Part shown: positions 1,022-23,809 of the stretch, in pieces
Layout: each line of letters begins with the position of its first letter
Position numbering within the stretch: the stretch's first letter is position 1
DNA from: an uncultured Opitutales bacterium
Lineage (GTDB): Bacteria > Verrucomicrobiota > Verrucomicrobiia > Opitutales > Intestinicryptomonadaceae
Assembly: GCA_934613415.1 (NCBI GenBank)
Contig: CAKTSY010000002.1
Location: 210,001 to 242,000 of the forward strand
Length of the DNA: 32,000 nucleotides
Direction of reading: 5' to 3'
Translations under genes and position numbers: made by a program
Notes under the pieces: generated by a model
What the model was told of the DNA's origin: nothing
Databases searched by the model: none
What the model saw: the letters and a program-made list of their open reading frames with translations, nothing else

Positions 1022-1443
1022 ATTATTTTTACAATCCAGTCTTAAAATAGGCAAAAAATCAGAATTCATCAAGTCCTATTTACGGAACTAGAATGGAAGA
1101 AGTAGAAACAAATCTAGATGAGGCCTATTTAAACGAGTTTTTACGCATTTTATCTAAAATATCGTATTACTCTTGTTTTCCATTTGAAGCGTGGAAAATT
1201 CTATAATCATTAACTTACTAGCTTAAAACTTGATATAAATCTTGTGTGAGCAAAACATGAGTCGTTTCCCAATAATATCTTATTGTATAAATGCCCGAAA
1301 ATGTGCTGCTTTATTGGGGGTTGTTTGTCTGCCATAGTGTGGTTTAAGAAATATATAACTAGACAAAAATCACTAATATATGCCAATATTCTAATTATGA
1401 TTGACTTTATAGCTAAGCTATGGTCTCATTACAGCTTTATCCG

Positions 1444-1481
1444 GCCCCTGTAGTTCAACGGATAGAACGGGCGTTTCCTAA
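1444..1481 (+). pseudogene. 5' half of a tRNA-Arg(CCU) gene, from acceptor stem to anticodon loop, truncated after TTCCTAA; putative attL
   Basis: GCCCCTGTAGTTCAACGGATAGAACGGGCGTTTCCTAA. It has a D-stem GTTC/GAAC and the anticodon-stem 5' strand GGCGT, then the loop TTCCTAA. Unrelated AT-rich DNA follows. It matches the complete copy at 13250-13287 (minus) at 37 of 38 positions. Confidence 0.8.
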
Positions 1482-1570
1482 TTTTGAATATATTCTATCC
1501 ATATTTATTTTTTTCTTTCGTTTTGTATTTTATTTGGTTTTAGCAAGTTGCAAGACCTGAAGCGTAAAAA

Positions 1571-1590
1571 TTCTTGCGTATTCTTGCGTA
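1571..1590. repeat. Perfect tandem 10-mer TTCTTGCGTA x2; further GCGTA copies at 1562-1566 and 1631-1635
   Basis: Read directly: agcgtaaaaaTTCTTGCGTATTCTTGCGTAttttt, about 90 nt inside the left junction. Confidence 0.9.
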
Positions 1591-1698
1591 TTTTTAAGGC
1601 ATTAAACACTATCAAAAACACCGTATTTTTGCGTAATTTTACAGAAAAATCCTTACCAAATTCTGACCATTTATTTTGACAGTATTTTAGGCGAATGT

Positions 1699-2181
1699 TC
1701 ATTCCGCATTCCTCCCATAATTACGCTTCCAATAGCTTAATGCACTTTCAATGGAACTGTATAATTTGCCACCTTCGCGATTAGCCGAAGTGTCGTCAAG
1801 AATGCGTAATATAACCTCATCATGCCCTAAATTTTCTACTACCTTTTGCAGCGCTGGAATCTTCAAAAACTCGTCAATTAAAGACATCACCCATCTGCGC
1901 TTGCGAACGGAAAGTTTTGAAAATTCAAACTTGGCACAACGCTCACCTCCAAACATCTGAACCCAAATTTTGCAGGAAATCTTCTGATGATTGTTGTATT
2001 TGTCGGAAGCAAAATATCCGTCCAGACGAACCTTCCGCAAGCGATAGTAAAAATCGTTTCTCTGAACGATAACCCAAATCCCGACCGCCTTCATCGGCAG
2101 TTCGAAAATCTCCGCCATTTCAGGAGTAATCTTGAATTTCTCAAACCCGTCAGTTGATATCTTTGTCTTGCTTATCATCAT
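1699..2181 (-). CDS. Hypothetical protein, 160 aa, no recognisable motif
   Basis: ORF-track entry in the AT-rich block with a varied amino-acid composition. Its stop overlaps the ATG of the 65-aa ORF 1505..1702 as ATGA. Confidence 0.5.
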   Translation of the reverse strand: MMISKTKISTDGFEKFKITPEMAEIFELPMKAVGIWVIVQRNDFYYRLRKVRLDGYFASDKYNNHQKISCKIWVQMFGGERCAKFEFSKLSVRKRRWVMSLIDEFLKIPALQKVVENLGHDEVILRILDDTSANREGGKLYSSIESALSYWKRNYGRNAE

Positions 2182-2655
2182 ACCTTTGTCCCTATGGCAT
2201 CTATACTACCACACCAGGCAAAAATACGCAACATTTTTATTTATTATTTTTAGACAATATTTCTCGTATAGAATTTTTCCTCCTTAATGTTGTCGATATT
2301 GTAGATAAATTACGAAAATATTACAATTACTACGTTTTTACGAAATTTGAATTAACGTGTAAAATTTGAATATGCAGATAGGAATGTAGCGATAGCCATA
2401 ATAGCTGTTAAAAATATAATTATTCTTGAACTTATGTTTGATGCTTTCGTTTGTTTTTCTATTGTGTTAGTTTTTCTAAGTTTTTAGACAATGTTTCAGA
2501 AGATTCATTTATTATTTTTGCGTGAAATTCTATCTTTTCATTAACTTCTCTTGATGATCTTGTGATGGAATCTCCACAGAATTTTAATCCATTTATTATA
2601 TCAATACTCATATTTTATCTTTATTTAGTGTGTTATTATCAAAACATTTTATCAT

Positions 2656-4326
2656 TTATAATTTTATTCTTTCTGTCGTCTTGTAAAAATATTTTATAGA
2701 TTCATCAAAAATTATATCTATATCTTTTATTGCGTATTTGAGTGTTAAGTCTTCCAATCTTTTTGTTCTGCTCAATCCTACATATGTTTGTCCACTGGCA
2801 AACGGATTGGCTCCATCGTAATAAACTTTGTCTATCGTCTTGCCTTGTGCCTTATGTACAGTTGTCGCAAATGCAAGCTCCAAAGGGATTTGGTATATCG
2901 TATCCTTTATCTTAGATTTTAGTATATTCTTCCCTTCTTCATCCTTTTTTACTTCGTATTCGTATAAATCCCATTTGTAAGGTGTAACTCTTTCTGTTTT
3001 TTTTGTACTTAGCATTTCCACATCTACATAACAATCGGCATCTCCATTTTCTTTTATATCTCTTACAATTCCCATTGTCCCGTTGTATATTCCGTCAGAC
3101 ATATTTATTACAAACATCACCAACGCATCTCTTTTTAATGTTAAACACTGGGAAAACAAAATATCTTTAAAAACAGGATCGCCTTGCTGGCATTTGATTT
3201 TTCCGTTGAGGCTTGTTATTCGATAGGCATGAAAATTATATTCCTTGCTTTTTAAATTACTTAACGCATCCTGATTTACCGCATCTACATCTTTATTTCT
3301 ATGCATGAGTTTTAATGCATTTTTTGGAGCTTGGGCGGATACTCTGTCATTAAAAAATTTTAGAGTTTGCGTCAAATTGTTCCTATCGCGAATGTTATCT
3401 AAAAGAGAACAAAATTCTTTGTCGGCTCTATGTTGGTCTTCTAAGAACAACATTTCTATTTTCATATTTCTAAATACATCTGCCTTAAAAAAATAATCAT
3501 ACTCTCCTTCGTTTTTCTTCCCTTTTAGGTTAAGTATTTTCCCGTATTCTTTTGTTATGACAGGAGGTAGTTGATATAAATCACCAGCTACGACTAATTT
3601 TATTCCTCCAAAAGCCTTGTTTGAATTTTTCGCTTTTCGCAAAATCTCGTCTATACAGTCCATCATATAGGCACTAACCATAGAAATTTCATCTATAAGA
3701 AGGTATTTTGTTATATTTATTTTATCTTTTGCTTTTTCTATGGAATTTTTTATATCTGCCTTGTCTAATAACTTCGGCGGCAATTTAAAGAAACTATGTA
3801 TGGTTGCTCCGTGTATAATACTTGCAGAAACACCCGTTGGAGCTAAAAGTACGCATCCTTTCAATCTTAAAGACAGATGCTCTATAATGTACGATTTACC
3901 GCTTCCGGCATTGCCTGTAATGAAAAGAACTGAGTTGTCTCCTTCATTCTTTTTTAAATATTCTGCAACCTTTTCATATGATGGGTCTTTATTTTCATAA
4001 AGTTGGATATTTCGCCGTAGGTCTTCGTTTTCTTTTTGCAGGGCCTTATAATCTAATTTTAGCACATTGAACTCTTCGGATATTCTTTTTAATTCTTCGG
4101 TGTATTCTATTTTTTCCGCAAGGAGTTTGTTCTTTGTTTCTTCTATTTCCTTGCATTTCAAATCAAATAATTCTTGTGCGCGCAGATTTATTTTTTCTTG
4201 CGAAAGTGTAGAAAAATATACATGCGCAATAAATACAAAGCCTCCTATTAAAACAAAAAGAATGAACATCGCGTCTCCGCTCATGGAGTGTTTTGTCGCA
4301 AAAATTATAAAGAATTGATGCATCAT
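2656..4326 (-). CDS. PIF1/RecD-family (SF1B) DNA helicase with an N-terminal transmembrane helix and coiled coil
   Basis: Helicase motifs: I ITGNAGSGKSY; Ia LLAPTGVSASIIHGATIHSFF; II LLIDEISMV; III VVAGDLYQLPPV; a QHR...LLDNIR signature; V/VI AFATTVHKAQGKTID. The N-terminus has AMFILFVLIGGFVFIAHVYF, then ~90 aa of K/E/L-rich heptad-like sequence. The start could be M1 or M15 (4284). Confidence 0.85.
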   Translation of the reverse strand: MMHQFFIIFATKHSMSGDAMFILFVLIGGFVFIAHVYFSTLSQEKINLRAQELFDLKCKEIEETKNKLLAEKIEYTEELKRISEEFNVLKLDYKALQKENEDLRRNIQLYENKDPSYEKVAEYLKKNEGDNSVLFITGNAGSGKSYIIEHLSLRLKGCVLLAPTGVSASIIHGATIHSFFKLPPKLLDKADIKNSIEKAKDKINITKYLLIDEISMVSAYMMDCIDEILRKAKNSNKAFGGIKLVVAGDLYQLPPVITKEYGKILNLKGKKNEGEYDYFFKADVFRNMKIEMLFLEDQHRADKEFCSLLDNIRDRNNLTQTLKFFNDRVSAQAPKNALKLMHRNKDVDAVNQDALSNLKSKEYNFHAYRITSLNGKIKCQQGDPVFKDILFSQCLTLKRDALVMFVINMSDGIYNGTMGIVRDIKENGDADCYVDVEMLSTKKTERVTPYKWDLYEYEVKKDEEGKNILKSKIKDTIYQIPLELAFATTVHKAQGKTIDKVYYDGANPFASGQTYVGLSRTKRLEDLTLKYAIKDIDIIFDESIKYFYKTTERIKL

Positions 4327-4704
4327 ATTTAGATTTTAATTAAAAAATAGAAGATAGTTACATTCGCATGCATCTGTTTTTTCTATTCATTGTCCCAAAG
4401 TATATGTAAATTTATGTGAAAAAGTCAAAGTAATTAAAAAGAATATGGAATAGTAGAAATTTTCAAAACCTCTTTTTTACAACAAAATCCCATAAACATT
4501 TTTATTCATAGTGACGACTTTTCTATCGTGTAACAAGCTATACCCACTAAGACTCTTCTTGATATATTATAGGTTTAATAATTATTTTATGCTATTTTTA
4601 TAAAAAGAGCAGTTATAAGAAAAGATGTCTTGAACTGGGCATAATAAAGATGCTAACATATATTACACTAAGACGCTTTAAAATGATTAAAAAAAGATGC
4701 TAAT

Positions 4705-6105
4705 ATGCCAAGAATAGGGATTACTGTTTATGATTTACTAATATCTTGTCCGGGAGATGTCTCTGATTATGTGAACATTGTAAACGAGTGTGTAGACGGA
4801 TTTAATCGTACATTAGGAGATATAAATAATGCTAAAATTGAAGCAAAGCATTGGTCAACGGATAGTTTCCCTGAGTCAGGAGATAAACCACAAGAGTTAT
4901 TAAACAAACAAATTGTGCGTGGTTGCGATGCGGCCATTGCAATTTTTTGGACAAAATTTGGGACTCCTACGGATAAATATGGCTCAGGTACTGAAGAAGA
5001 AATTGAAGAAATGTTATCTGCAAAGAAACAGATTTTCCTTTATTTTGTGAATGAGCCTATTAATCCTTCCGAATTGGACCAAAAACAATATAACAAGATA
5101 AAAGAATTCAAAGAGAAATATAAGGACAGGGGAATATATTGTGAAGTAAAAAATAAGGACGATTTTAGAACGCAATTCACTAATCATTTGACGATGTATT
5201 TCTTGCCAATAATAATGGGTAAAAACCAGAAAAATGCAGGAGTGGCAGCTCCCGTATTGCAAATACAAGATTATTATTCCGAAAAGAGAAATACGGCATC
5301 TATTCAAAATATCAAATTATTGGATTGGGAGTTAATAAAAGAAAAACATCAAAGTATTTGCACTCAAATAAAGAAATTAAATAAGGATTATTTACCTCAA
5401 CGTGTGCCAGCAAAAAAAGAAGTTAATGATATTGCAGGAATTTTAAAAATTCAAAATTCATTTTTGCCAACAAGATCAGATGTGTCGATATCTAAATCAA
5501 AGAAGGATACCATTTTAACATTTTGTCATCATAACTCTTTAGAAATCCCTGAACAATTTTGGAATTTGGGCGATTTAAAACAACAAACATCAAAATTGCC
5601 TTTTTCGCCATATTACAATAATAATTCGCTTGAAGGGACAGATGCGGAACAAGAACGTTATGAGGCCATAATAAACTTATATTCTGGCATTCTAAAATAT
5701 AACGAATATTATACATATTTTTCTCAAATAGAGAATCAAAGATTTGTATCATTGGTAATTGCAAATATCGGAGCGAGTTTTGATGAAGACATAGATGTCA
5801 AGTTGATTTTTGAAAAAGGTTGTATATTGGGACATCAAGACATCCCCTGCCCAGGACAACATATAATAGAAGATATATTAGAATCTCAATTCATAGAATC
5901 TATATATGGGATAGATGCGACCGACTCTATTTGTAAATATAGTGCTCATTCTATTATGCATGCTTATCTTGATCCGGATATTAAATATCCTTTCCCCCAA
6001 CTTTCCGAAAGTGAAAGATACGAAAATAGAAAACGTAGCTATAGAGACCATTTGGAAAATGTTTTATGTTATGAAATATACAAAAAAGGGGGAACGATAT
6101 TTTAA
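4705..6105 (+). CDS. Hypothetical protein, 466 aa; N-terminal ~170 aa resemble a TIR/DUF4062/nucleoside-deoxyribosyltransferase-like alpha/beta domain; the rest is unknown
   Basis: It is a long ORF divergent from the helicase. The N-terminal pattern is ITVYDLLISCPGDV ... CDAAIAIFWTKFGTPT..GSGTEEEIEEM..KKQIFLYF (strand, helix, strand, acidic G-[ST]-x-E-E, strand). I recognise no motif in the C-terminal 300 aa. The gene may be frameshifted at its 3' end (see findings). Confidence 0.6.
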   Translation: MPRIGITVYDLLISCPGDVSDYVNIVNECVDGFNRTLGDINNAKIEAKHWSTDSFPESGDKPQELLNKQIVRGCDAAIAIFWTKFGTPTDKYGSGTEEEIEEMLSAKKQIFLYFVNEPINPSELDQKQYNKIKEFKEKYKDRGIYCEVKNKDDFRTQFTNHLTMYFLPIIMGKNQKNAGVAAPVLQIQDYYSEKRNTASIQNIKLLDWELIKEKHQSICTQIKKLNKDYLPQRVPAKKEVNDIAGILKIQNSFLPTRSDVSISKSKKDTILTFCHHNSLEIPEQFWNLGDLKQQTSKLPFSPYYNNNSLEGTDAEQERYEAIINLYSGILKYNEYYTYFSQIENQRFVSLVIANIGASFDEDIDVKLIFEKGCILGHQDIPCPGQHIIEDILESQFIESIYGIDATDSICKYSAHSIMHAYLDPDIKYPFPQLSESERYENRKRSYRDHLENVLCYEIYKKGGTIF

Positions 6106-6371
6106 AATTTCACATACCATATCTAAAGCATAATACAAAAATGGCATTCCCTTCCGTTTTAATTCTAAAAAATCAACCAAAGAAGATAGAGTATGAAATT
6201 ACCTCAAAGCATATTTCTGATGTTATAAAAGGAGAAATCTCTTTTTCGCCTGAAAATCCAGTTTTATTGGAGCAGTGAGACAGAATCCGCAATTTATTTA
6301 GTGGCAAAGAGGGCTTGAAAGTTTTATGAAATGGTTTAAAGTCTATGGGTAGACTTATTAGAATAGGAAAT

Positions 6372-7976
6372 ATGGCAAAAAAGACTTCCGAAAAGGCTTT
6401 GAATATTGATAATATTCTGTTTAATTGCAGAGATATTTTGCGGGCGGCGCGCAATTCCGGATCGTTTTTTGAAAAACGCGATATGATGCTAACGCTCGTA
6501 TTCCTGCGTTTTATAGGCGAAAAATTTGAAGACGGCATTGAGAAACTCCGCCAAACATTAATCGAACAAGGCATTGACCCTGATGATGAAAACAACAAAG
6601 CCGCATTTTTTGACGATCCAAGTTTTGCGGACGGAACATATAATTTGGCGGTTGAAGCGCGTTGGGCAACCATTATAAACACACCTGCGCCCAATCTTAA
6701 TGTTGCGCTTGACACTGCTCTTCACAGCATTGCGACAGATTCAAAACAATTGAAAGGCTGTTTCGTAGAGGGTACTTTTACAACGCGCAATCTTGCTCCT
6801 AATGACATAAAGAAGCTTGTAGACGAGGTTAACAAAATTAGCCACAAAGCTTTTGGAGAGGAAAAAGACCTTATTGGGCGCGTATACGAATATTTTCTTA
6901 AAGAGTTTGCAGTAAATGCCACAAAGGAAGAAGGCGAATTTTATACTCCCCACGATGTTGTGCAGCTCATCGCATCCATGATAGAACCTTATGAAGGCAC
7001 ATTATATGACCCTGCTTGCGGTTCGGGCGGTATGTTTATTCAGAGCGCAGAACTTGTCAAATCGAGGCAAGGCGACATCAATCGAATCAACATATATGGT
7101 CAGGAAAAAGATGCCGCCACTTATCGTCTTGCAAAAATGAACCTTGCGCTTCGCGGGCTTAGCCACGATCTTGGAGAAACAAACGACTCTTCATTTACCC
7201 ACGATCTGCATAAGGGGCTTTATTTTGATTACATAATGGCGAATCCGCCATTCAATCTCAAGGGGTGGTATAACGATAACTTAAAAAATGATGCGCGTTG
7301 GGCTGATTATGCTGTGCCGCCGGAAAGCAATGCAAATTATGCTTGGATTTTACATATACTTTCCCACTTAAAACCTTCTGATGGGGTTGCCGGATTTTTA
7401 CTTGCAAATGGCGCGTTGAACGATAGCGATACCTTGGGAATTCGCCAAAAGCTAATTCAAAAAGACAAAGTTGAGGCAATCGTTGTTCTGCCGAGAGAAT
7501 TGTTTATCACTACAGATATCAGCGTTACGCTTTGGATTTTGAATCAGAATAAAAAAGGCGGCAAATACCACGGACGTAAACTGCGCAACCGCGAACATGA
7601 AATATTATTTATGGATTTACGCCAGTGGACGGAAAATCCCGTTAAAGGTGAAAACAAGAAGAAAGTTCGCTTGATAGCAGCGCAAATTGAAAAAGCGTCT
7701 AAAATTTACCATACTTGGCAAAGCGAAGGAACCAACGGAACAAAGTATGAAGTTCCTGAACTCTATCGCAGCGTGAATAAAACGGAAATAGAGCAAAAAG
7801 GCTGGGCGTTAACTCCAAGTAAATATATCGAATTCATCGACCACGACTTAGACATCGACTACAAAAAGGAAATGTCGCGCATTCAAGCTGAAATGCGTGA
7901 AATCCTAAAGCAAGAAAAGAAATCCCAGCAAATGCTGGAAGACGCATTTAAGGGTATAGGCTATGGCATTGAGTAG
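6372..7976 (+). CDS. hsdM: Type I R-M DNA methyltransferase subunit HsdM
   Basis: Motifs FYTPHDVV, YDPACGSGGMF and FDYIMANPPFN, plus NANYAWILHIL. The preferred start is the ATG at 6372 (MAKKTSEK), preceded by AGGAAA. The track ORF starts at 6345. Confidence 0.93.
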   Translation: MAKKTSEKALNIDNILFNCRDILRAARNSGSFFEKRDMMLTLVFLRFIGEKFEDGIEKLRQTLIEQGIDPDDENNKAAFFDDPSFADGTYNLAVEARWATIINTPAPNLNVALDTALHSIATDSKQLKGCFVEGTFTTRNLAPNDIKKLVDEVNKISHKAFGEEKDLIGRVYEYFLKEFAVNATKEEGEFYTPHDVVQLIASMIEPYEGTLYDPACGSGGMFIQSAELVKSRQGDINRINIYGQEKDAATYRLAKMNLALRGLSHDLGETNDSSFTHDLHKGLYFDYIMANPPFNLKGWYNDNLKNDARWADYAVPPESNANYAWILHILSHLKPSDGVAGFLLANGALNDSDTLGIRQKLIQKDKVEAIVVLPRELFITTDISVTLWILNQNKKGGKYHGRKLRNREHEILFMDLRQWTENPVKGENKKKVRLIAAQIEKASKIYHTWQSEGTNGTKYEVPELYRSVNKTEIEQKGWALTPSKYIEFIDHDLDIDYKKEMSRIQAEMREILKQEKKSQQMLEDAFKGIGYGIE

Positions 7977-9087
7977 GCTCAAACTTGGGGACTTGATTGA
8001 ATTATGCGAATCAAAGAATGAGGATTTGCAGTATAGCATCAATGATGTAAAAGGAATCTCCATCCAAAAAAAATTCATTGAAACAAAAGCTGATATGACA
8101 GATGTGTCTCTAACCCCATATCTCTTGGTAAGACCTGATGACTTTGCTTTCGTTACTGTTACATCTCGCAACGGAGAAAAAATCACTTTAGCACATAATA
8201 CAACAAATAAAACATATATAGTATCCTCATCTTATGTTGTATTCCATGTAAAAGACAAAGAACTCCTCTTATCTGATTTTCTATTTATGTATTTTAATCG
8301 GCCAGAATTTGACCGTTATTCGCGTTTTAATTCTTGGGGATCTGCGAGAGAAACTTTTAGTTGGGAAGATATGTGCGATATTGAAATCGATCTTCCACCG
8401 CTTCCAATTCAGCAGAAGTATGTTGATGTTTATAATGCAATGCTTGCGAATCAAAAAAGTTACGAACGTGGTTTGGACGATTTGAAGCTTGTTTGCGATG
8501 CCTATATTGAAGAGTTAAGGCGTAAAATGCCGTGCGAGACTATTGGAAAATATCTTGAAGAAGTAAGCGAACCAAATACAAACAAAAAATACACTGATGT
8601 ACAAGGTGTTGAATCTACATGTACTTTTATAGATACTCGTGCAAATATGCAGGGAGTTGACATTAGAAAATACACGATCGTGCGAAAAGGGACATTTGTA
8701 TATAATCCATCTCGAATAAATATAGGTTCAATTGCACTTTATCCTAATGAGTCACCTTGTATTGTTTCCCCTATGTATTCTGTATTTAAGATAACTTCTT
8801 TAGAAAAAATATTACCAGAATATTTGATGTTATGGTTTGAGAGAACTGAATTTCAAAGACAAACATGGTATTATGCTGCTGGTTCGGTAAGAGATACTTT
8901 TGACTTTAATTTAATGAAAGAGGTAAAAATTCCATTACCAACAATAGATATACAAAGCGATATAGTAAATATCTTTAACGTGTACAAAAATCGCAAAGCG
9001 ATCAACGAAAAGTTAAAAGTCCAGATAAAAAATATCTGCCCGATACTAATAAAAGGTTCAATCGAAGAAGCAAGGAAGGCTGGATAA
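7963..9087 (+). CDS. hsdS: Type I R-M specificity subunit HsdS with two target-recognition domains
   Basis: It overlaps the hsdM stop by 14 nt and sits between hsdM and hsdR. It has a two-fold repeated architecture with conserved helical spacers (LPPLPIQQKYV... and IPLPTIDIQSDIV...). It is AT-richer than its neighbours, as is typical of TRDs. Confidence 0.88.
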   Translation: MALSRLKLGDLIELCESKNEDLQYSINDVKGISIQKKFIETKADMTDVSLTPYLLVRPDDFAFVTVTSRNGEKITLAHNTTNKTYIVSSSYVVFHVKDKELLLSDFLFMYFNRPEFDRYSRFNSWGSARETFSWEDMCDIEIDLPPLPIQQKYVDVYNAMLANQKSYERGLDDLKLVCDAYIEELRRKMPCETIGKYLEEVSEPNTNKKYTDVQGVESTCTFIDTRANMQGVDIRKYTIVRKGTFVYNPSRINIGSIALYPNESPCIVSPMYSVFKITSLEKILPEYLMLWFERTEFQRQTWYYAAGSVRDTFDFNLMKEVKIPLPTIDIQSDIVNIFNVYKNRKAINEKLKVQIKNICPILIKGSIEEARKAG

Positions 9088-9090
9088 TTC

Positions 9091-12000: not shown

Positions 12001-12420
12001 GAACGCGCGTCGGAAGACATCCTCCAAAGTGCTACAAAACAAGCTTTAGACATTCTCTCACAAATGAAAGAGAGTAGAGAAAGTTTTAGAAAGATAGGCT
12101 TAACTTTTGAAGAAAAAGCTTTTTACGACATTTTAATCGCATTGCGCGACCAGTATAATTTTGAGTACGGAACAGATAAAAATTTAGGCGGTGTCATTAT
12201 TAACGATAAATGCAAAATACTGGCTAAAAAAATTAAGGAAATAATCGACACAAAATCTTCATTCGCGGATTGGCTTAATAACCAGAATGTCCGCAACCAA
12301 CTAAAACTTGAAATCAAAATTTGTTTAGTCCAAAGCGGATATCCACCGCAATATAGTCCGGAAGTATTCAGCAAAGTTATGGAGCAAGTCGAGAATTTTG
12401 AGGAAAATTCAGCAACTTGA
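9091..12420 (+). CDS. hsdR: Type I restriction endonuclease/translocase subunit HsdR
   Basis: It has a PD-(D/E)xK nuclease motif RRPDILLFVNGMPLCVIELK, Walker A GATGCGKTYT and a DEAH box FSDEAHRSQ. The C-terminal region (EKAFYDIL...) is typical of HsdR. Confidence 0.93.
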   Translation: MAKLKEFNRHYCESEYEYAFIAFLESADWIYSSGNKIARTTKRDVLISDDFKKFIAKTNPDLTEDEINRIFDNLRLIGSESDFSTLHKVYGWMVNGIQFTPQNGLARMIPLIDFESPANNIFRVVNQFVVEYTNNGQKETRRPDILLFVNGMPLCVIELKNPADANATIFDAWEQINIRYWRDIPHLLHYCPLACISDGVKTRLGTVRTPYEHFYAWRRVNDGDNVSTLPFEETETMIKGVYAPSRFLEIFRDYIYFQDAIYDSDEREIVCRYPQFFAAKLLKQSIVKSVVEKSGKGGTYFGATGCGKTYTMAFLARQLALRCTDIPEIGSPTIILIVDRDDLQKQGAKLFTKSKEFLNLGEVSIVKNRAHLRQELAARQSGGFYICTIQKFCDRKDDKIGLINDRRNIICFSDEAHRSQIEHSKKIQFSKDADENMKAMVSKPYAKVLKEAFPRATFVGFTGTPIAETYQTFGNEIDRYTMDQAVADGLTVSIKYHPRIAKILLDNKKIQEIEAYYKKCADDGATLEDVEASKKAMSSMELILGEPLRLERLAVDIHDHYLSSCANDPDRIQKAMVVCSNRKIAYALLKEFRAKYPEWFEEKKSPDGIFVTEDELKELKPMPFIAMVSSVGSNDEAEMYNYLGGVRNDKRSEELDAAFKQEKSNFRIVIVVDMWITGFDVPSLTYLYNDKPLKKHLLIQTISRVNRKYPGKEYGMIIDYIGIRDNMREAMKVYGGNTSVAPTSDDVEQATQIFREELEILKKLFVNYDLTPFLDPNCDPIERYKLLAKAAEYVFLSTQSLRLSDGDMARNVSFKTYFLKTVKRMRAAYDVCQPSGNLGEEESALAQCFMAIAGFVRKMNGTSEVDADTMNRTVSKMVEEALKYNQVESILAGGEEEDIFSPEYFEKLSDVKMPATKLELLVKMLRKEIKEYGKVNQVAAKKYQEMLEKTIKEYHERRKHLDIEEAGEAQERASEDILQSATKQALDILSQMKESRESFRKIGLTFEEKAFYDILIALRDQYNFEYGTDKNLGGVIINDKCKILAKKIKEIIDTKSSFADWLNNQNVRNQLKLEIKICLVQSGYPPQYSPEVFSKVMEQVENFEENSAT

Positions 12421-12636
12421 CATATTTTGCATAAGTAGCACTTTTTAACTGCCAATGTAGGAATTCCCAATCTGTAAATGGCTGGGGAAGCAATGATAAT
12501 GCCGTAAAAGAAGGCTTGAGAATTTTGTCGGAATACAAGCTTCCAGACGGATTGAAAATCTGGATTATCGCCGAGTGGGACAGAAGCGCAACTACGCTAC
12601 TTTTCCCAGAGACTACTAAAAGATTCAGCCTGCTGG

Positions 12637-12879
12637 TTATTCCGCGATTATAAAGTAGCTGGAGTCTTTAAGCTTTTCGGCAATATGTTCAGCGGATAGT
12701 TCCTTACTATTTTCATCGGCCAAATTATCTGAAATACTTGGTGCCGATTCTAACAGAATCAATACATAGGAACTTTTTAAGGCGTAATTCACGTTTTCCG
12801 CGAATGTCCCAACGATTTCCCGATATAAAAAACGCCCGAAATTCGCCATATTACTGGATTCTCGAGCGTCTCGATTCAA
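12637..12879 (-). CDS. Small hypothetical ORF, possibly the remnant of a longer gene
   Basis: ORF-track entry with a TTG start. The same frame stays open upstream to ~12966 with no ATG. No motif recognised. Confidence 0.25.
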   Translation of the reverse strand: MNRDARESSNMANFGRFLYREIVGTFAENVNYALKSSYVLILLESAPSISDNLADENSKELSAEHIAEKLKDSSYFIIAE

Positions 12880-13010
12880 AAAGTATGGGACATTTGAAAA
12901 ATGCCTGTCGTAAGAAGAAAGCGGTCTGCCGAACGCCCCTGCTGTTTTGTTGGGGTTAATAGATTCCTTTTAGCCCCCCGTATCGCTATGTCCGTTTATA
13001 GTTCACCGCA

Positions 13011-13036
13011 GGCAAATAGGAGAAATAGGTAAATAG
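13011..13036. repeat. AAATAGG heptamer array: 2 perfect copies plus 1 copy matching 6 of 7
   Basis: GGCAAATAGGAGAAATAGGTAAATAG. Its reverse complement, CTATTTACCTATTTCTCCTATTTGCC, matches the array at 13368-13430. Confidence 0.85.
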
Positions 13037-13215
13037 TGCATACTCTTAAAATTGATGAGGGCGTTTTTGCGAGTATTTCGCAAGGCAAAAATGGGAAGGG
13101 TTTGGTAAGAATTTTACCGAATTTTCGGTATATTATTAACGACTTACAAAACTTTTCCGATTTCCATAAGAATGAAAGCAAAACGGCAATATACTAAGCA
13201 AGAAAAACTTATCCG

Positions 13216-13287
13216 CGCCCCCACCGTGAATCGAACACGGATTTGGCGTTTAGGAAACGCTCGTTCTATCCGTTGAACTACAGGGGC
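13216..13287 (-). tRNA. tRNA-Arg, anticodon CCU, complete, no encoded CCA
   Basis: Reverse complement: GCCCCTG-TA-GTTC-AACGGATA-GAAC-G-AGCGT-TTCCTAA-ACGCC-AAAT-CCGTG-TTCGATT-CACGG-TGGGGGC-G. This folds as a cloverleaf with a 7-bp acceptor stem (two G-U pairs), 4-bp D stem, 5-bp T stem and T-loop TTCGATT. The anticodon stem has an A27.C43 mismatch. Confidence 0.85.
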
Positions 13288-13367
13288 GGGATAAAGGAAA
13301 TATGAGACCATAGCTTGGCTTGAAAGTCAACCATAATCCCGATATTTGCGTATATAAGTATCTTTTT

Positions 13368-13430
13368 GCCTATTTACCTATTTGCCGAGTTGGTTAGCGT
13401 CAATACCTATTTCTCCTATTTGCCTATTTT
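13368..13430. repeat. CCTATTT heptamer array, 5 perfect copies, inverted relative to 13011-13036
   Basis: Copies lie at 13369-75, 13377-83, 13406-12, 13415-21 and 13423-29. The last copy abuts the stop codon of the DUF3987-like gene. Confidence 0.85.
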
Positions 13431-14893
13431 CAGAACGGCATATCGTCGTCATCATCGACTTCTATTCCAAGCGCCTTTTTAGCCTCGGAGATTCTATCTT
13501 TCAAGACAACGTATCGCCCTTTACCCTTTTTTAGGATTTCATAAAGATTGGGGAACGTATGCACGATAAATTCCACCCTTTCAGTTCGCAAACTGGAATA
13601 TTGGTCAAAAAAGCTAATCTTCTTATAGAAACCGTCGTTTTGGCGAATCATAGCGTCCATTTTTGCTCTGTCGTTTTCGATTTCTGGAAGCATTCCGCTT
13701 GAGAACAAAACCACCGAAACGCAGATTGAATACGACACCACCCTGCATGCGCGTTTTGCGATGTTGGCGGTGATTCGGTCCGCGCCTTCAGCCTGCGCGA
13801 AAATAACCGCAAGCCTGATTGCGTTTTCCCTTGCCTTGCCAAGCAAAGAAGCCTGCGTGCGCAGTTTGCCGTTCATAAGATGCGTGTTGAATGCGTCGAA
13901 GTCCCAGAAATACTCGAAGACGTCTTGGTCGGTGTCAAACCATACTGGCAGGCCTTTCTTGCGGGTTTGGTAGGTTTGAGCAAGAAGGTTTTCCCATTTG
14001 AGAATTACGGCTTCGTCAAGCGGGATAATTTCTTTCGAGTCTGGAATGGCCTTTGGAGCGCCTTTGCAGTAGAGGAATCTTCCAAGAAACCCGCTGCCGA
14101 TAAAGCTGCCTTTGTTCTTTGAAACGATGTTGTCGATGACGTCGTTTTGCACCATCCAAAGCAGGGAAATGCAGGGATTGGGAACGCTTGAAATCCCGTT
14201 TACAATTCGGTTGTGCTTTATGGGCTCGCCGCACCAGCCGCTGTTTAGCGTTTCGGTGTCGTCGCCTTGCTTGCGATAGTTGCCCGCCACAATGTAGATG
14301 CTGTCGCGGGCTTCCTCGCATACCGAAAAAATTTCGCCGCCGCTTGCTTCCATCGCCTTTATCATGGCTTCCGACGTTGAATTTTTCACGATGAAGTCGG
14401 GGTTTCTCGGGGGCTTGGGAGTGTCCGCAATTTCGTCGTCAAGGCCCAATTTGTCCTCGCCGTTAAGCTTGTCCTGCATGAGCTTTGCCTTCGCTTTCTT
14501 GAATTTCTCAAGCTCCTTTTTGTATTCGGAGATTTCGTCCAAAACCCTTCTTTCCAAATTGGAGAAAAGGGCGCGAATGCTTGCGCTTTTGCCAGTGGAG
14601 CTTTCGCCCACGCCTAGGACAAAGATATTCCCTGTTTGCGTGTATCCGCCGCTTACTGCGTTTTTCGCCTTGAACACTCTGCCCATAGCGCCGCTTAAAA
14701 TTCCGCAGGCGCAGAAGCAAAGAAGCTCCATTGGCAGATTTCTGCCAACGGAATACGTTCTTGCGACGTCGCGGATAGGTTTCGGGAAGGCGTCAATGGG
14801 GCATTCGCTTTCGTAAAACTCTTTGTAGGCTTCCGAAAGCGTCTCCATGGTTGCAAAAAATTGCGGAGTTTTTTGTGCCACGAACCTAGACAT
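13430..14893 (-). CDS. DUF3987-like (YfjI-type) putative helicase/replication protein of integrative elements
   Basis: PIDAFPKPIRDVARTYSVGRNLPMELLCFCACGILSGAMG...NIFVLGVGESSTGKSA matches the DUF3987 pattern as I remember it. The preferred start is MSRFVAQK at 14893, which overlaps the upstream stop as ATGTCTAG. The track ORF extends to 15019. Confidence 0.75.
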   Translation of the reverse strand: MSRFVAQKTPQFFATMETLSEAYKEFYESECPIDAFPKPIRDVARTYSVGRNLPMELLCFCACGILSGAMGRVFKAKNAVSGGYTQTGNIFVLGVGESSTGKSASIRALFSNLERRVLDEISEYKKELEKFKKAKAKLMQDKLNGEDKLGLDDEIADTPKPPRNPDFIVKNSTSEAMIKAMEASGGEIFSVCEEARDSIYIVAGNYRKQGDDTETLNSGWCGEPIKHNRIVNGISSVPNPCISLLWMVQNDVIDNIVSKNKGSFIGSGFLGRFLYCKGAPKAIPDSKEIIPLDEAVILKWENLLAQTYQTRKKGLPVWFDTDQDVFEYFWDFDAFNTHLMNGKLRTQASLLGKARENAIRLAVIFAQAEGADRITANIAKRACRVVSYSICVSVVLFSSGMLPEIENDRAKMDAMIRQNDGFYKKISFFDQYSSLRTERVEFIVHTFPNLYEILKKGKGRYVVLKDRISEAKKALGIEVDDDDDMPF

Positions 14894-15674
14894 TTTCCAC
14901 CTCTCCCCAAGCTGTGTTGCCGTTTTGGCATTGTGCGATGAGCGTCTGAGAAATTTCGGAATCCTCAAACGGCTTGTAATGCCTGAACGAGAAAACCGAC
15001 TCCTCTTTCGTCCCCACAAGCACCGACATTATGTTTGCATAAACACCGATAGCCTTTCCGCCCATGCACCATTTTGCGGGGTGAATCCTTTTGCTCCAAA
15101 ACATCGGCTTGTCGAAGTGGTGGATCAAGACCATTGCAAAGTTGTGCTTCGATTTTAGCCCGTTTATTTTGCAAAAGAGGTCGGCAACTGCCGCATGGTC
15201 TGAAAAGTTGCAATGCACAAACGACGACAGCGAATCCACAATTACCACATCGTACTTGCCCGCGCTTAAAGAAGCGTCCAGTTTCGATATGAATTCGTCC
15301 ACCGAATAATATCGGCCTGTTTTGCAGCGGAAGCGGAAATTATTTTCCATAATTTCGCAAAAGTCCGCCTTTTTATCGAGTTCAAATTGCGAAACGATAT
15401 CGTCTAAGTAGATCTTCTCGTCGGCAATCGGGTTTTCGGAATGGAGCAAGAGGGTCTTGGCGGGGCGGACAATATCAAGCCCCAATGTTTTTTCGCCAAG
15501 GGCGAGGCTTGCGGCAAGCTGCATTGCAAGAACGCTTTTGCCGATTCCGCTCGCGCCCGAAATTACCCACGTCTGCCCTTTGCTTAAAAAGTCCTTCTCG
15601 ATTATAACGCCGTCAAAACCGAAAATGGATTCGTTTTCTTCGGCTAAAATTTGGCTTATCGTGCGAATTCTCAT
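14886..15674 (-). CDS. RecA-like AAA ATPase (AAA_25/RepA-like)
   Basis: It has Walker A GASGIGKS and Walker B VVIVDSLSSF, followed by LIHHFDKP. Its start overlaps the upstream HTH gene stop by 1 nt (TAATG). Confidence 0.75.
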   Translation of the reverse strand: MRIRTISQILAEENESIFGFDGVIIEKDFLSKGQTWVISGASGIGKSVLAMQLAASLALGEKTLGLDIVRPAKTLLLHSENPIADEKIYLDDIVSQFELDKKADFCEIMENNFRFRCKTGRYYSVDEFISKLDASLSAGKYDVVIVDSLSSFVHCNFSDHAAVADLFCKINGLKSKHNFAMVLIHHFDKPMFWSKRIHPAKWCMGGKAIGVYANIMSVLVGTKEESVFSFRHYKPFEDSEISQTLIAQCQNGNTAWGEVENV

Positions 15675-15931
15675 TAGATTTCTCCTTTCTTCGCGCTTTT
15701 GGCGGGGCGGACTATAAAGCAGTGGTCAAGCAGGACGTCGCAATCGCTTTTCTTGTAGCGAATGCACTTGCCCGAAAGACGGTAGCTCGGCAGTTTGCCC
15801 TGTCTGCGGAGCTGCTCAATAAAGGTTGTGCCAATATTGAGATACTCCGCCACCTCTGCGCGTGTAAAAAGCCTGTCGCTTGCGTCAGGCTGCGTTAATG
15901 TTTGAGTTTTTGCGGATTTTTTCTTTTCCAT
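15674..15931 (-). CDS. Excisionase/AlpA-type helix-turn-helix DNA-binding protein
   Basis: LFTRAEVAEYLNIGTTFIEQLRRQGKLPSYRLSGKCIRYKKSD is typical of the HTH_17/Xis family. The preferred start is MEKKKSAK at 15931; the track ORF starts at 16057. Confidence 0.7.
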   Translation of the reverse strand: MEKKKSAKTQTLTQPDASDRLFTRAEVAEYLNIGTTFIEQLRRQGKLPSYRLSGKCIRYKKSDCDVLLDHCFIVRPAKSAKKGEI

Positions 15932-16343
15932 GCAGAATGTCCGCGTGTCAAATTTTTCAAAAATTAATAGCCGCAAAATTGCGAAAAAAATCGAATTGGA
16001 AGGCGAAAAAAATAGTTGGGAAAGTGGTTTCCCAAAGAAGGCGGAAAAACGACACAAAAATAAAAGTGTGTCGATTTTGGATTATATGGCGCAAAAATAT
16101 TCGGCAAAAATTGCTTGGTCGGGGGAAATGTTTCACTGGTGATACAAATGGGAATTCCAAGATATAAACTTCCATTTTCCGCAAAATTTACCGCGTGTTC
16201 CGTTTTTTTAGATCATTTATTTATCCTATTGAAAAACGGCCAAATAGAATTTCTTAAATGGTCTATTATCAAATGGTAATAGGATTAAAAATAAATGGAT
16301 TGTTCAGCTTGACTTGAAACGCTTTTTATACATTTTTCGTTTC

Positions 16344-17060
16344 ATGATAAAGCGGACAGTAGAGGAACAAATTCTTAGAACAATCAGTTTTTTGGAAAGC
16401 GGCAGGGTGTTTTCGTCAACAGATTTTGCGGACATCGCAAACCAAAACACAATCAGAACGGCGTTAAGGCGTCTTACTCTGGCAAAGAAAATCGACGCCC
16501 TTGGGCATTCTCTATATTATAAGCGAATCTGCACAAAAGAATTTCCCTATGGATATAGGCCAAAACATCAATCCATTGCCAATGCCATAGCGCGAAGATT
16601 CTCTTGGAAGATTTTTCCGACGCTGTCTTACACGTTTGCGTATTTTTCGTTGCGCAAAGACGGCGACCGCATATTCCCAAGCTCGGGGCCAAATAAAAAA
16701 TTTGAGTTCAATTCTTTCGCATTTCAGGGAATCGTTGAATTTAGGCATATCCCGCTTAAATTGTCCCGAATTGCCGACAAGAAAGCCTTTATGTACGTTC
16801 AAGCCCTTGTAGCCTTTGGCGAAGATTCCGAAGAAATGAAGCGCATATTTGCAAAGACTTCCACAGAGGATTTGAAAACAGTCATCAGAAAAATAACCTA
16901 TGCGCCGCTAAGAATCCAGAATGTGTTTTTAAAAGAGCTTAAATCGAGGGATAACGGCAAGTCGAATTCAGGAGATGCGAATGCTGAAAACATCAACAAC
17001 GCCTTTAATAAAGTGCAAGAAAAGCGAAAGCTTGCCAGAATATTTCGCAGCTTGTCATAG
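16344..17060 (+). CDS. AbiEi-antitoxin-like/DUF6088-like putative transcriptional regulator
   Basis: The N-terminus, IKRTVEEQILRTISFLESGRVFSSTDFADIANQNTIRTALRRLTLAKKIDALGHSLYY, resembles the winged-helix AbiEi_4/DUF6088 pattern. No AbiEii partner gene is seen. The start is either 16314 or 16344. Confidence 0.5.
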   Translation: MIKRTVEEQILRTISFLESGRVFSSTDFADIANQNTIRTALRRLTLAKKIDALGHSLYYKRICTKEFPYGYRPKHQSIANAIARRFSWKIFPTLSYTFAYFSLRKDGDRIFPSSGPNKKFEFNSFAFQGIVEFRHIPLKLSRIADKKAFMYVQALVAFGEDSEEMKRIFAKTSTEDLKTVIRKITYAPLRIQNVFLKELKSRDNGKSNSGDANAENINNAFNKVQEKRKLARIFRSLS

Positions 17061-17134
17061 CTTGTACGTTACTTGTATGTTACTTGTATGTTTTGGAGCG
17101 ATTATTCACGTTTCCCAAATCGACATATTCTCAT

Positions 17135-17154
17135 ATTCCGCACATGTGCGGAAT
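17135..17154. terminator. Perfect 20-nt palindrome ATTCCGCACATGTGCGGAAT between convergent genes; either a hairpin terminator or a protein-binding site
   Basis: Read directly. It lies between the stop of the DUF6088-like gene (17060) and the stop of the integrase gene (17170). No strong T-run follows it. Confidence 0.4.
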
Positions 17155-17169
17155 TTGGAATGCCCGCTG

Positions 17170-18441
17170 TTATTCTTCTGGCAGAATATCAAAATATTTT
17201 ATGGCGTCTTTTTCGCGGGCAAGGCCGTTGTAGTGCTGTTTTAGGACATCTACGGCGTGTCCCATTTGCTCGGCGGTTAGGTATGCGTTCTTTGTCAGCG
17301 CAAGGTAGTATGTCGCCGCTGAATGGCGCAGTCCGTTCTTTATCCAGTTGCCTTTGCCGAGGCTCTCGTGAAGCTTTTTTAGCACTGGAACTTTTCGCCT
17401 TGTAAGGATCTTTTTCTTTGTGCCGAGATCCCAGACGTACGGTTCGAGCCATTTCGCCAAGTTTTCAGGAATCTTTACGATTCTGCGCGATGCCGTTTTT
17501 GTTATTTCGCTGTCGAGTATGATTTCTCGGTCGTCGAGCCTTATTTTGTCCCAAGTCAGCCTTTTTAGCTCGGCGTTGCGTATTCCTGTAAAGGCGGCGA
17601 TGGCCGTAAATGCGCGGATTTCGCTTTGCGGCGGCGTGGAGTTTAGAATTTTTCGCACCTCGTCGGGCGTGAATATTTGGGGCGTTCTGCCCCTTGCTCG
17701 CCAGCTTTCCACTTTCTCAACGGGGTTGACGTCGAGCCAGTCCTGCATCTTGCAAAATTTGAAGAAGGAATAGAGCGTGCGCCTGTATTCGTTTCTCGAG
17801 TAAATCCCCAAGTCTTTCTGCGTTTCCTTGAAAACCTTCATGGGGCGTCCGTCAACTGTCAGCGTGTCGCTGTCGTCGTATTCGCGCTTTTTGAGGTTTA
17901 TGAGCCATTGGAAGATTTCCCTGCCAGTTATGAGCGAGACTATTCTCTCCTTGCCGAAATCGCCCATGAAGCGGGCAAGAGTGCGCTCGACCCCTGTGAC
18001 ATACTCGCTCGACAGCTCCTTTTTCAAGAGCGTATAGCAGTATTTGTCGATGGCGAAGTCCAACCTTGCGGAGCGTTCCTTTAGCTTTGCGAGCGATTTG
18101 TACTCCTCTATGGCTTGGCTTAGGCTGATTCCGAGCGACTGCAAATCATTCGTAAGCTTCACGTAGGTGAGGACGGCGTTTGTAAGCGACACCCGCAAAG
18201 GGGAAAGCAGCATCTTTGCCTCGACCAGTTCGCGCCTGTCGTTTGGCGAAATCCTGTCGGCTTCGACGCCGAGCTTTTCGTCGTAAACATTTTTCTCACG
18301 GAAAAATTCGAGGGCTTCGGCTTCGGTTGAAAACCTGCGCGCCCATCGTTTTTGCTTTTCTGTGTCGAAATAGTAAACGACCCAGCGCTCGCGGTTTTTC
18401 TCTGCAACTTTTTTTGGAAAGGAAGGTGATCTATTCTTCAT
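17170..18441 (-). CDS. int: Tyrosine site-specific recombinase (integrase)
   Basis: The C-terminal catalytic residues are recognisable: GIRNAELKRL (Arg), GLRHSAATYY (His-x-x-Arg) and GHAVDVLKQHY (His...Tyr). The gene is 100 nt from the right junction. Confidence 0.9.
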   Translation of the reverse strand: MKNRSPSFPKKVAEKNRERWVVYYFDTEKQKRWARRFSTEAEALEFFREKNVYDEKLGVEADRISPNDRRELVEAKMLLSPLRVSLTNAVLTYVKLTNDLQSLGISLSQAIEEYKSLAKLKERSARLDFAIDKYCYTLLKKELSSEYVTGVERTLARFMGDFGKERIVSLITGREIFQWLINLKKREYDDSDTLTVDGRPMKVFKETQKDLGIYSRNEYRRTLYSFFKFCKMQDWLDVNPVEKVESWRARGRTPQIFTPDEVRKILNSTPPQSEIRAFTAIAAFTGIRNAELKRLTWDKIRLDDREIILDSEITKTASRRIVKIPENLAKWLEPYVWDLGTKKKILTRRKVPVLKKLHESLGKGNWIKNGLRHSAATYYLALTKNAYLTAEQMGHAVDVLKQHYNGLAREKDAIKYFDILPEE

Positions 18442-18540
18442 GCAAAATCCTTTCCTGTCAAAAATGCGAAATGGTAAGGGATTGCCTTACCGCTGCGAAA
18501 AAATCGCGCAAGTTGCTCGTAATTACATATGTTCTATTAG

Positions 18541-18581
18541 TTCCTAAACGCCAAATCCGTGTTCGATTCACGGTGGGGGCG
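18541..18581 (+). pseudogene. 3' half of the tRNA-Arg(CCU) gene, from anticodon loop to discriminator; putative attR
   Basis: TTCCTAA-ACGCC-AAAT-CCGTG-TTCGATT-CACGG-TGGGGGC-G. Together with the next 17 nt it is identical to the island-borne copy: 18541-18598 equals the reverse complement of 13199-13256. Confidence 0.8.
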
Positions 18582-18603
18582 CGGATAAGTTTTTCTTGTT
18601 ATT

Positions 18604-18981
18604 ATGAAGCGATTTAAAAATATGTCGTCTTCCAAATTATGTGCTTTAATAGAAGAGTCGCCCGAATACGAATCGGTTTTCGATGAGCACAAGATTTGGA
18701 AACATTTTGACGCTATGTCGTGGACAGCTCTTTTGCAATTTAAGCCCGAGCTTTCCGACAGGTGCGACAAATATGACGGATGGAAAGATTTTGACGACGA
18801 AAATTGGGCGGAACTTCTCGCAGATCAACCGCTTTTTGAAGCAAAGTGCACGCAACTAAACGCTTGGAAGAAACTCGACGTATATGATTGGCTTCATCTC
18901 GGGTGTTATCAATCTGAAATATTGGATAGACACAACCCAAATTTTGAAGAGCAATACGAAGCTGAAATGGGAGAAGCGTAG
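18604..18981 (+). CDS. Hypothetical acidic protein with ~27-aa W-x2-LL repeats
   Basis: ORF-track entry. Internal repeats: SWTALLQFKPELSDRCDKYDGWKDFDDE / NWAELLADQPLFEAKCTQLNAWKKLDVY / DWLHLGCYQSEILDRH. Confidence 0.55.
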   Translation: MKRFKNMSSSKLCALIEESPEYESVFDEHKIWKHFDAMSWTALLQFKPELSDRCDKYDGWKDFDDENWAELLADQPLFEAKCTQLNAWKKLDVYDWLHLGCYQSEILDRHNPNFEEQYEAEMGEA

Positions 18982-19147
18982 TTTCGAATTGATATTTCTT
19001 CTTAATGCAAAAATAGTTTTGCAAACTTTAATTTGTTCTGCGTTGATAGAAAGCAATGTTGCTATGCTATGCCGTTGGCTGGTGCTTTTTGCATAAGGTT
19101 AAGTTTTTTTTGATAAAATAGTACTTGATTAATTTTTGTATAATAAA

Positions 19148-20365: not shown

Positions 20366-20400
20366 GCTACCTCGTATACATCGCAAATGTTGTAAGCAAC

Positions 20401-20436
20401 AAAAAACAGGCGGTTTAGTGTCGCCTGTTTTTTTTG
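20401..20436. terminator. Bidirectional rho-independent terminator
   Basis: aaaaaACAGGCGgtttagtgtCGCCTGTttttttt: a 7-bp GC-rich stem flanked by an A-run and a T-run, between convergent genes. Confidence 0.75.
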
Positions 20437-20439
20437 TCG

Positions 20440-23732: not shown

Positions 23733-23809
23733 TGGAGCGGGCAATGAGTCTCGAACTCACAACCTCGACCTTGGCAAGGTCGCGCTCTAGCCAATTGAGC
23801 TATGCCCGC
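23733..23809 (-). tRNA. tRNA-Gly, anticodon GCC, CCA encoded
   Basis: Reverse complement: GCGGGCA-TA-GCTC-AATTGGCTA-GAGC-G-CGACC-TTGCCAA-GGTCG-AGGTT-GTGAG-TTCGAGA-CTCAT-TGCCCGC-T-CCA. Confidence 0.9.

Follow-up and report, generated by a model that had tools for sequence, protein, structure and literature searches.

Some actinobacteriophages enter a tRNA gene through a short core of 8–17 bp and do not rebuild the gene, as described by Guerrero-Bustamante and Hatfull (mBio 2024; PMC10865867). Such phages (Fionnbharth, LeBron, Gaia and others) encode a tRNA with a matching isotype, which was shown experimentally to be required for viable lysogens, and the authors noted the Lactobacillus johnsonii prophage Lj965 as a likely further case (PMC10865867). 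In canonical tRNA-gene islands, the attachment site of the element (attP) carries the 3′ part of the tRNA, the gene is regenerated at one junction and the displaced fragment is left as a direct repeat of 40–60 bp (Islander, PMC4383910). Here we analyze a stretch of 32,000 nt from an uncultured Opitutales bacterium (Verrucomicrobiota; assembly GCA_934613415.1, contig CAKTSY010000002.1, positions 210,001–242,000), in the following called the window, in which a tRNA-Arg(CCU) gene is split by about 17 kb of inserted DNA. The insert is an integrated non-phage replicative defence island of gut Opitutales and carries a complete tRNA-Arg(CCU) gene of its own. A replacement-tRNA strategy was previously known only from some temperate phages; here it occurs in a non-phage element and in another phylum.

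With tRNA-dependent lysogeny, the island shares an integration site in a tRNA gene together with a tyrosine integrase encoded at one end, a short core that does not rebuild the gene, and an element-encoded tRNA of the same anticodon, apparently with its own promoter. In contrast to the known cases, it is not a temperate phage; virion, lysis and repressor genes are absent, the element has the look of a replicative defence island, and its host belongs to the Verrucomicrobiota. Furthermore, its spare tRNA copies the native one at 100% identity and has native-like upstream sequence. Because it is an exact copy of the target, the spare tRNA keeps the attachment core, at which other family members split it. 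Like canonical tRNA-gene islands, the window island has a tyrosine integrase at one end, a crossover point in the anticodon loop with a symmetric stem, and a tRNA locus that is a hot spot for foreign DNA. It departs from the Islander-type arrangement in that the direct repeat measures only 7 bp and both junctions are broken. In the literature searched, no such islands were described for Opitutales.

The 5′ half of the split gene (1444–1481) reads GCCCCTGTAGTTCAACGGATAGAACGGGCGTTTCCTAA and ends in TTCCTAA, and the 3′ half (18541–18581) starts with TTCCTAAACGCC and ends in GGGGGCG. Between them lie 17,059 bp, and the 7-bp TTCCTAA is the only sequence common to both junctions; the island spans 1482–18540, or 17,066 bp when one core copy is counted. 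Joined in silico through one TTCCTAA, the halves were called by ARAGORN as tRNA-Arg(cct), a cloverleaf of 73 nt with a fully paired anticodon stem. The same program called no tRNA at the left or at the right junction. The halves do not reflect chance similarity, since they agree with the complete tRNA inside the insert at 37 of 38 (5′) and 41 of 41 (3′) positions; they match the native tRNA of a related contig with an empty site (L045) equally well. In total, the locus holds two 5′ and two 3′ halves, one gene being split by the insert and one lying intact within it. The core in the anticodon loop is flanked by the inverted, perfectly symmetric anticodon-stem arms GGCGT/ACGCC. A loop flanked by a symmetric stem is the classic geometry of a core site. 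The split is confirmed as a real observation. An earlier reading of this DNA, here called the original prediction, had described two halves sharing TTCCTAA, a canonical cloverleaf with paired anticodon stem upon joining, a tyrosine integrase gene 100 nt inside the right junction, and two junctions that overlap by just 7 bp and hold no complete gene. All of this was reproduced, and its structural interpretation is supported; among other things, it had overlooked that temperate phages were already known to use this strategy (PMC10865867).

For the empty site, metagenome contigs were scanned with a DNA pattern in which the 5′ half was joined to the host-specific 3′ half and trailer. The scan gave one contig, L045, with an intact tRNA-Arg(CCT) gene, where window positions 1360–1481 (96.7% identity) are fused directly to 18541–18606 (100%). 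The outer flanks of L045 are syntenic as well, one side corresponding to DNA about 7.6–8.3 kb left of the window start and the other to the AXE1 gene region at window 20385–20526. The uninterrupted related locus that the original prediction had proposed to look for exists; all DNA from one TTCCTAA copy to the other is inserted. Among contigs of the same lineage, reached by the right-flank genes for a 119-aa protein and an ankyrin protein, none had an empty site; either the integrase adjoined or the contig was broken at the repeat. The same arrangement, identical or nearly so, was found on at least 13 independent metagenome contigs, many of 0.2–1 Mb, where lineage contigs had been reached through four different window proteins. 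Counted by assembly, the split layout recurs at least 13–19 times independently.

The complete island tRNA-Arg(CCU) lies 5.3 kb inside the right junction and matches the native L045 tRNA at 100% identity; the orphan host 5′ half differs from both by A27G. Two inverted repeats connect it with the island ends, one of 117 nt and 82% identity (1365–1481 with 13250–13366) and a perfect one of 58 nt (13199–13256 with 18541–18598). The direct repeat at the island ends measures 7 bp; the 3′-half repeat of 58 nt is inverted and located 5.3 kb inside. About 80 nt of promoter-like sequence precede the island tRNA, and the alignment shows an upstream block, TTGACTTT...TGGTCTCAT, that is common to the island copy and to native genes. 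This upstream region (U2) stays with the integrase module in all family members. In both the native and the island copy, the leader TTTATCCG is complementary to the trailer CGGATAAG (1435–1443 with 18582–18590 and 13206–13214 with 13288–13296, respectively), which adds about 8 bp to the precursor's acceptor stem and may matter for processing. Seven of the 11 AAATAGG sites of the window cluster on both sides of the island tRNA (13014–13029, plus strand; 13369–13429, minus strand). These repeats could possibly be origin iterons or binding sites for the integrase or another protein. Three more AAATAGG are located upstream of the host 5′ half at 1045–1130.

In the host genes of the window, AGG accounts for 28% of Arg codons, and loss of tRNA-Arg(CCU) should hence be costly. 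A tRNA-Arg(UCU) might cover part of the AGG demand. The original prediction had regarded the target gene as actually disrupted. This stands for the host copy, which is broken; it missed, however, the complete tRNA-Arg(CCU) of the island, through which tRNA function is most likely kept. As far as the sequence tells, the functional harm of the split would be removed because the island supplies its own copy.

The right 5.3 kb of the island (13250–18540) constitute a conserved module that contains, from the integrase end, the integrase, an AbiEi-like gene on the opposite strand, HTH_17, AAA_25, DUF3987, the AAATAGG repeats, and the tRNA upstream region with the 5′ half. Integrase orthologues with 79–100% identity are present in 16 species-representative Opitutales genomes, and their hosts include Puniceicoccaceae bacterium Marseille-Q1082, 'Coraliomargarita sp. 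CAG:312', Intestinicryptomonas porci and Candidatus Merdousia. Reading the translation by eye, we tentatively assigned to the catalytic residues R-K-H-R-H/W-Y the integrase motifs GIRNAE (Arg), TKTASRR (Lys), NGLRHS (Arg, with Asn at the first His position) and GHAVDVLKQHY (His, Tyr). A PDB sequence search with the integrase found no relative. P4-like and phage-inducible chromosomal island (PICI)-like satellites as well as small integrative replicative elements have a similar order of integrase, HTH_17, then AAA_25 and DUF3987, with iteron-like repeats just downstream of the replication genes. Unlike the P4/PICI-like satellites, the window island carries defence genes as cargo; its annotation contained the int-alpA-primase/helicase core, and no capsid-remodelling, packaging, cos/pac or other helper-phage functions were recognised.

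In the sense of the tRNA, we name the upstream region with the 5′ half B, the 3′ half with the trailer B′, the integrase-proximal island arm P and the arm at the far end P′. In all family members the P arm is kept as far as the core and not past it, and homologous P′ arms (P′1) adjoin the core in L027, L020, L028, L034, L047 and L050. In the window, the nonamer GCAAGTTGC has two occurrences only, one in each arm and both in the same orientation. Both positions are conserved in the family, which makes this nonamer a candidate arm-type integrase site.

All fetched loci were surveyed for these arms around TTCCTAA. The window and a compact copy of 8.5 kb (L028) have the same three junctions, namely B-core-P′, P-core-B′ and an inverted B-core-B′. 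Throughout the 16 Opitutales genomes, the homology of the integrase-proximal end breaks off precisely at TTAGGAA, and in most of them the inverted 3′ half lies beyond. In L047 and L050, the native upstream region and 5′ half are joined to the P′ arm beside housekeeping Pho/Pst genes, and L021 contains a P-core-P′ junction of attP type that is free of tRNA sequence. From the arm survey, L021 included, it follows that the attachment site of the family shares just the 7-nt anticodon loop with its target. Split ends and an internal tRNA are the norm of the family and not the accident of one genome. In L021 we also noticed an ISL3-family transposase (8550–9776) beside the P′ arm of a second island type (E2) in the isolate Marseille-Q1082. 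A tRNA remnant was sought after the DUF3987-like gene of this second type, and none was found.

The island-borne tRNA doubles as an attachment site for further family members, by which it is split at the same 7-bp core in other genomes. In L001, L026, L027, L034 and L020, the module's own 5′ half is joined at TTCCTAA to a P′ arm. Behind this arm, L027 has the 160-aa gene together with defence cargo that belongs to a second family member, the resident module being partly deleted. In L025 and L023, past the integrase-side core there is no host DNA but the trailer of another island and the start of its cargo. The simplest reading of these layouts would be serial integration, either into the island-borne tRNA (nesting) or into attR, the right attachment junction (tandem, L021). 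In the window's own lineage, there is one arrangement only. As a separate observation, the integrase module of L001 (9880–15205) and L008 is 100% identical to that of strain L003 and stands in another context, with genes for glutamine synthetase and DAP epimerase. Beside it remain just 19 nt of the tRNA 3′ half that abut a truncated open reading frame, which suggests that the locus was rearranged recently or underwent a secondary event.

The explanation that we favour, and with good confidence, is a tRNA-disrupting integrative island that carries a replacement tRNA. Its attP, composed of P arm, TTCCTAA and P′ arm, would be recombined with the host tRNA-Arg(CCU) gene by the island's tyrosine integrase; with the arm type of the window, attP would read ...GTTCTATTAG-TTCCTAA-TTTTGAATATATTC... 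Strand exchange would take place within the 7-nt anticodon loop, between the symmetric stem arms. An overlap of 6–8 bp is typical of tyrosine recombinases (PMC10865867). Neither junction would rebuild the gene because attP shares only 7 bp with the tRNA. The loss would be compensated by the island's own tRNA-Arg(CCU), which has its own upstream region and lies beside the replication module. Since this copy is inverted relative to the att core, recombination between attP and the island tRNA could only invert DNA and never delete it. Protein roles we infer from family membership only: the HTH_17 protein would be the likely excision factor, and replication of the excised circle would fall to AAA_25 and DUF3987. 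The core of the island-borne tRNA would then serve as target for later family members. We may further speculate, tentatively and with more doubt than conviction, on a 'tRNA relay' in which each integration breaks the working tRNA-Arg(CCU) and installs a native-identical copy as the cell's sole working gene for a common codon and as landing pad of the next family member.

Several observations weigh against the island with a replacement tRNA. For the window's own P′ arm type, neither an excised circle nor an attP junction came to light; in viral contigs, its exact attP pattern had no matches, and neither had the pattern of P′2 type. All contigs of the window lineage are in the integrated state, so that current mobility is unproven and a still mobile island copy may only be presumed. 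The region of the left boundary holds a second, unexplained insertion of 8.9 kb. A sigma-70 promoter scan upstream of the island tRNA scored no consensus promoter; the alignment shows a conserved TTGACT-containing block only. That the spare tRNA is expressed and needed is presumed, and the case for the need would be weaker if the genome had another tRNA-Arg(CCU) or if a tRNA-Arg(UCU) covered AGG. In L001 and L034 the island tRNA is split, and there was no intact copy within the DNA examined; given these two loci, the tRNA may be dispensable. A relaxed attP search with 20-mers had returned eight matches, all in an unrelated conserved phage coding region, and they were rejected as attP.

A split that is flanked by repeats could also have arisen in other ways. 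Repeats derived from the tRNA might have joined unrelated contigs into an assembly chimera; repeats of 58–117 nt do exist, and many short contigs end exactly in them (L016, L017, L043, L048, L051). However, the full arrangement with both junctions recurs in the at least 13 independent assemblies with their long contigs, which excludes a chimera, and other species, isolate genomes included, show the same layout. We hence regard an artefact as effectively refuted. A biological alternative starts from canonical integration, where an attP with a 58-bp copy of the tRNA 3′ half rebuilt the gene at the left junction (attL), followed by inversion of 1482–13256. The host 5′ half would have recombined with an internal 5′-half fragment, moving the rebuilt gene inside and leaving orphan halves at the ends. 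Such a history would account for the 100% identity of 13199–13256 and 18541–18598 over 58 nt, which ends exactly at the core as in attL/attR duplicates, and the inverted 5′ halves (117 nt, 82%) would be available to recombine. Yet it requires an additional 5′ half and promoter inside the island that it does not explain, and U2 with the 5′ half is fixed in the integrase module of every family member. Split ends with an internal tRNA are moreover usual across species and strains and no one-off. In strain L003 the internal and host 3′ halves agree to only 86%, so that the 58-bp identity is not a feature of the family, and L021 has an attP-type junction without a tRNA 3′ half. Altogether we consider an inverted canonical island very improbable.

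Inversion could also be a recurrent process driven by the integrase, in which the three cores (attR, island tRNA, attL) repeatedly flip the 5.3-kb module and the cargo in a shufflon-like manner. Four isomers would result, each with at least one intact tRNA, and the window would be one isomer and not a simple insertion. In agreement with this, the core in the island tRNA has the opposite orientation to the cores at both att sites, and the layouts in L021 (P-core-P′, then intact tRNA) and in L001/L026 (P-core-3′ half, then 5′ half-core-P′) resemble isomers with nothing in common but the 7-bp core. In addition, the sequence that flanks the integrase on the left in L025 recurs, inverted, to the right of the tRNA in L028. 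A shufflon would be expected to show both orientations side by side within a lineage, but about 19–23 contigs of the window lineage all have a single one. For every variant, serial insertion of a second family member, with the island-borne tRNA or attR as its target, is an equally good explanation. Furthermore, the cargo block of L033 has the same orientation as that of L001, with the tRNA intact or split, which simple cargo inversion does not predict. With no isomers within the lineage, serial integration sufficing and the L033/L001 cargo orientation not fitting, the four-isomer model was downgraded, and we regard it as unlikely. The tRNA-disrupting island with its replacement tRNA remains our preferred explanation.

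The variable middle of the island is cargo, which in the window comprises a type I restriction-modification system, a PDC-S60-like protein and a Dda/PIF1-like helicase. In PHROG and Pfam searches the 17-kb insert showed no structural or virion, packaging or lysis genes, the matches being confined to integrase, excisionase, helicase/primase and defence functions; the element is hence not a prophage. Small conserved open reading frames of the island encode 65, 70 and 160 aa. The 65-aa and 160-aa proteins, encoded at the likewise conserved P′ end, have no Pfam, PHROG or PADLOC match. Among 5.8 billion proteins, the 160-aa family has 143 members, always adjoined by the P′ arm. Relatives carry other cargo, i.e., SIR2, HipA, AIPR/Abi_C, RelA_SpoT, Fic, methyltransferases, and a type I system with an hsdS shufflon. 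In the family-member cargo of L062/L063 (246–3860), two hsdS genes flank their own small tyrosine recombinase, likely a phase-variable shufflon of type I specificity. Coordinates of all features are compiled in the table.

Table. Features of the split tRNA-Arg(CCU) locus and of the island in window coordinates, with the counterparts in the empty-site contig
Feature	Position	Strand	Description and evidence
attL, host side	1365–1481	+	U1 upstream region 1365–1443 and orphan 5′ half 1444–1481; core TTCCTAA 1475–1481
P′ arm, far island end	1482–1600	+	GCAAGTTGC at 1543–1551; tandem ATTCTTGCGT x2 at 1570–1589
Two small P′-end genes	1505–2181	-	65 aa 1505–1702; 160 aa 1699–2181; called genes in L019, L039
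PIF1/Dda-like superfamily 1B (SF1B) helicase	2656–4326	-	PF05970 E=2e-28; phrog_325 Dda-like helicase
466-aa protein, N-terminus like candidate defence protein PDC-S60	4705–6105	+	PADLOC PDC-S60 E=6e-34; weak DUF4062
Type I restriction-modification system	6345–12420	+	hsdM 6345–7976, hsdS 7963–9087, hsdR 9091–12420; Pfam and PADLOC MTase_I, Specificity_I, REase_I
AAATAGG repeat pair downstream of island tRNA	13010–13031	+	22-nt perfect inverted repeat with 13404–13425
Complete island tRNA-Arg(CCU), putative replacement copy	13215–13287	-	ARAGORN; Rfam RF00005 54.4 bits vs 29-bit threshold
U2 upstream region of island tRNA	13288–13429	-	conserved TTGACTTT...TGGTCTCAT block (alignment) and five AAATAGG at 13369–13429
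DUF3987 helicase/primase-like, putative replication module	13430–15019 (called gene 13430–14893)	-	PF13148 E=1.6e-42; phrog_2373 DNA helicase; phrog_3022 primase
AAA_25 (RepA/DnaB-like) ATPase	14886–15674	-	PF13481 E=2e-21; PHROG primase/helicase families
HTH_17 excisionase-like, candidate recombination directionality factor	15674–16057	-	PF12728; phrog_66 excisionase; TIGR01764 excise 33.6 bits vs 28.8 cutoff
DUF6088/AbiEi-like protein	16314–17060	+	PF19570; PADLOC AbiEi E=3e-23
Tyrosine integrase, 423 aa	17170–18441	-	PF00589 47.2 bits vs 27.1, residues 257–407; phrog_1 integrase
P arm, integrase-proximal island end	18442–18540	+	GCAAGTTGC at 18508–18516; terminal TTCTATTAG adjoins core
attR, host side	18541–18598	+	core 18541–18547, orphan 3′ half to 18581, 17 nt native trailer
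L045 counterparts	L045 8059–8178; L045 8172–8237		attL side (window 1360–1481); attR side (window 18541–18606)

Outside the island, a second type I restriction block of about 8.9 kb lies 84 nt upstream of the split tRNA and contains hsdM, hsdS, an AAA_15 ATPase gene, hsdR and a gene for a 357-aa protein. It covers window 1–1360 and about 7.6 kb further left (L019 12968–20750; L039 10823–19760) and is absent from L045. Its hsdR is 98% identical to family-member cargo from another species (L027 17989–21066), and the block is probably the remnant of an earlier island. The hsdM family of this left flank is huge and horizontally spread, which made it of no use for tracing the flank. The hsdM genes of left flank (123–409) and island cargo (7005–7291) are inverted to each other with stretches of 71–90% identity and could support homologous recombination across attL. 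On the right flank, a 119-aa gene and an ankyrin-repeat gene (18622–20365) stand where L045 has a DUF4357 gene. The same DUF4357 gene lies in the right flank of L022, and L016 has an additional DUF6119 gene there. Because gene content differs among these contigs, the right side of the tRNA is a variable spot, too. An ordinary tRNA-Gly(GCC) gene is located in the host flank at 23733–23809 on the minus strand (Rfam 64.6 bits).

The locus takes tRNA-dependent integration beyond actinobacteriophages, to a defence island of gut Verrucomicrobiota that is no phage, and the strategy may therefore be a general one of mobile elements. Islands of this kind are probably detected too rarely, as island finders seek a regenerated tRNA and a long displaced fragment, and this layout offers neither. 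With its 7-bp core in a symmetric anticodon stem-loop, the locus moreover supplies a concrete, minimal pair of integrase and att site for a gut phylum that is not easily tractable. The finding belongs to a kind that was described recently, in a new phylum and a new type of element, and the nesting mechanism is plausible and testable. An exact-copy spare tRNA suggests a testable route to the nested accretion of defence islands and to island stabilisation by tRNA dependence. If each integration does hand the only working tRNA-Arg(CCU) on to the newest island, imprecise island loss would be costly, and defence islands could accumulate at a single locus in nested arrays whose older residents decay.

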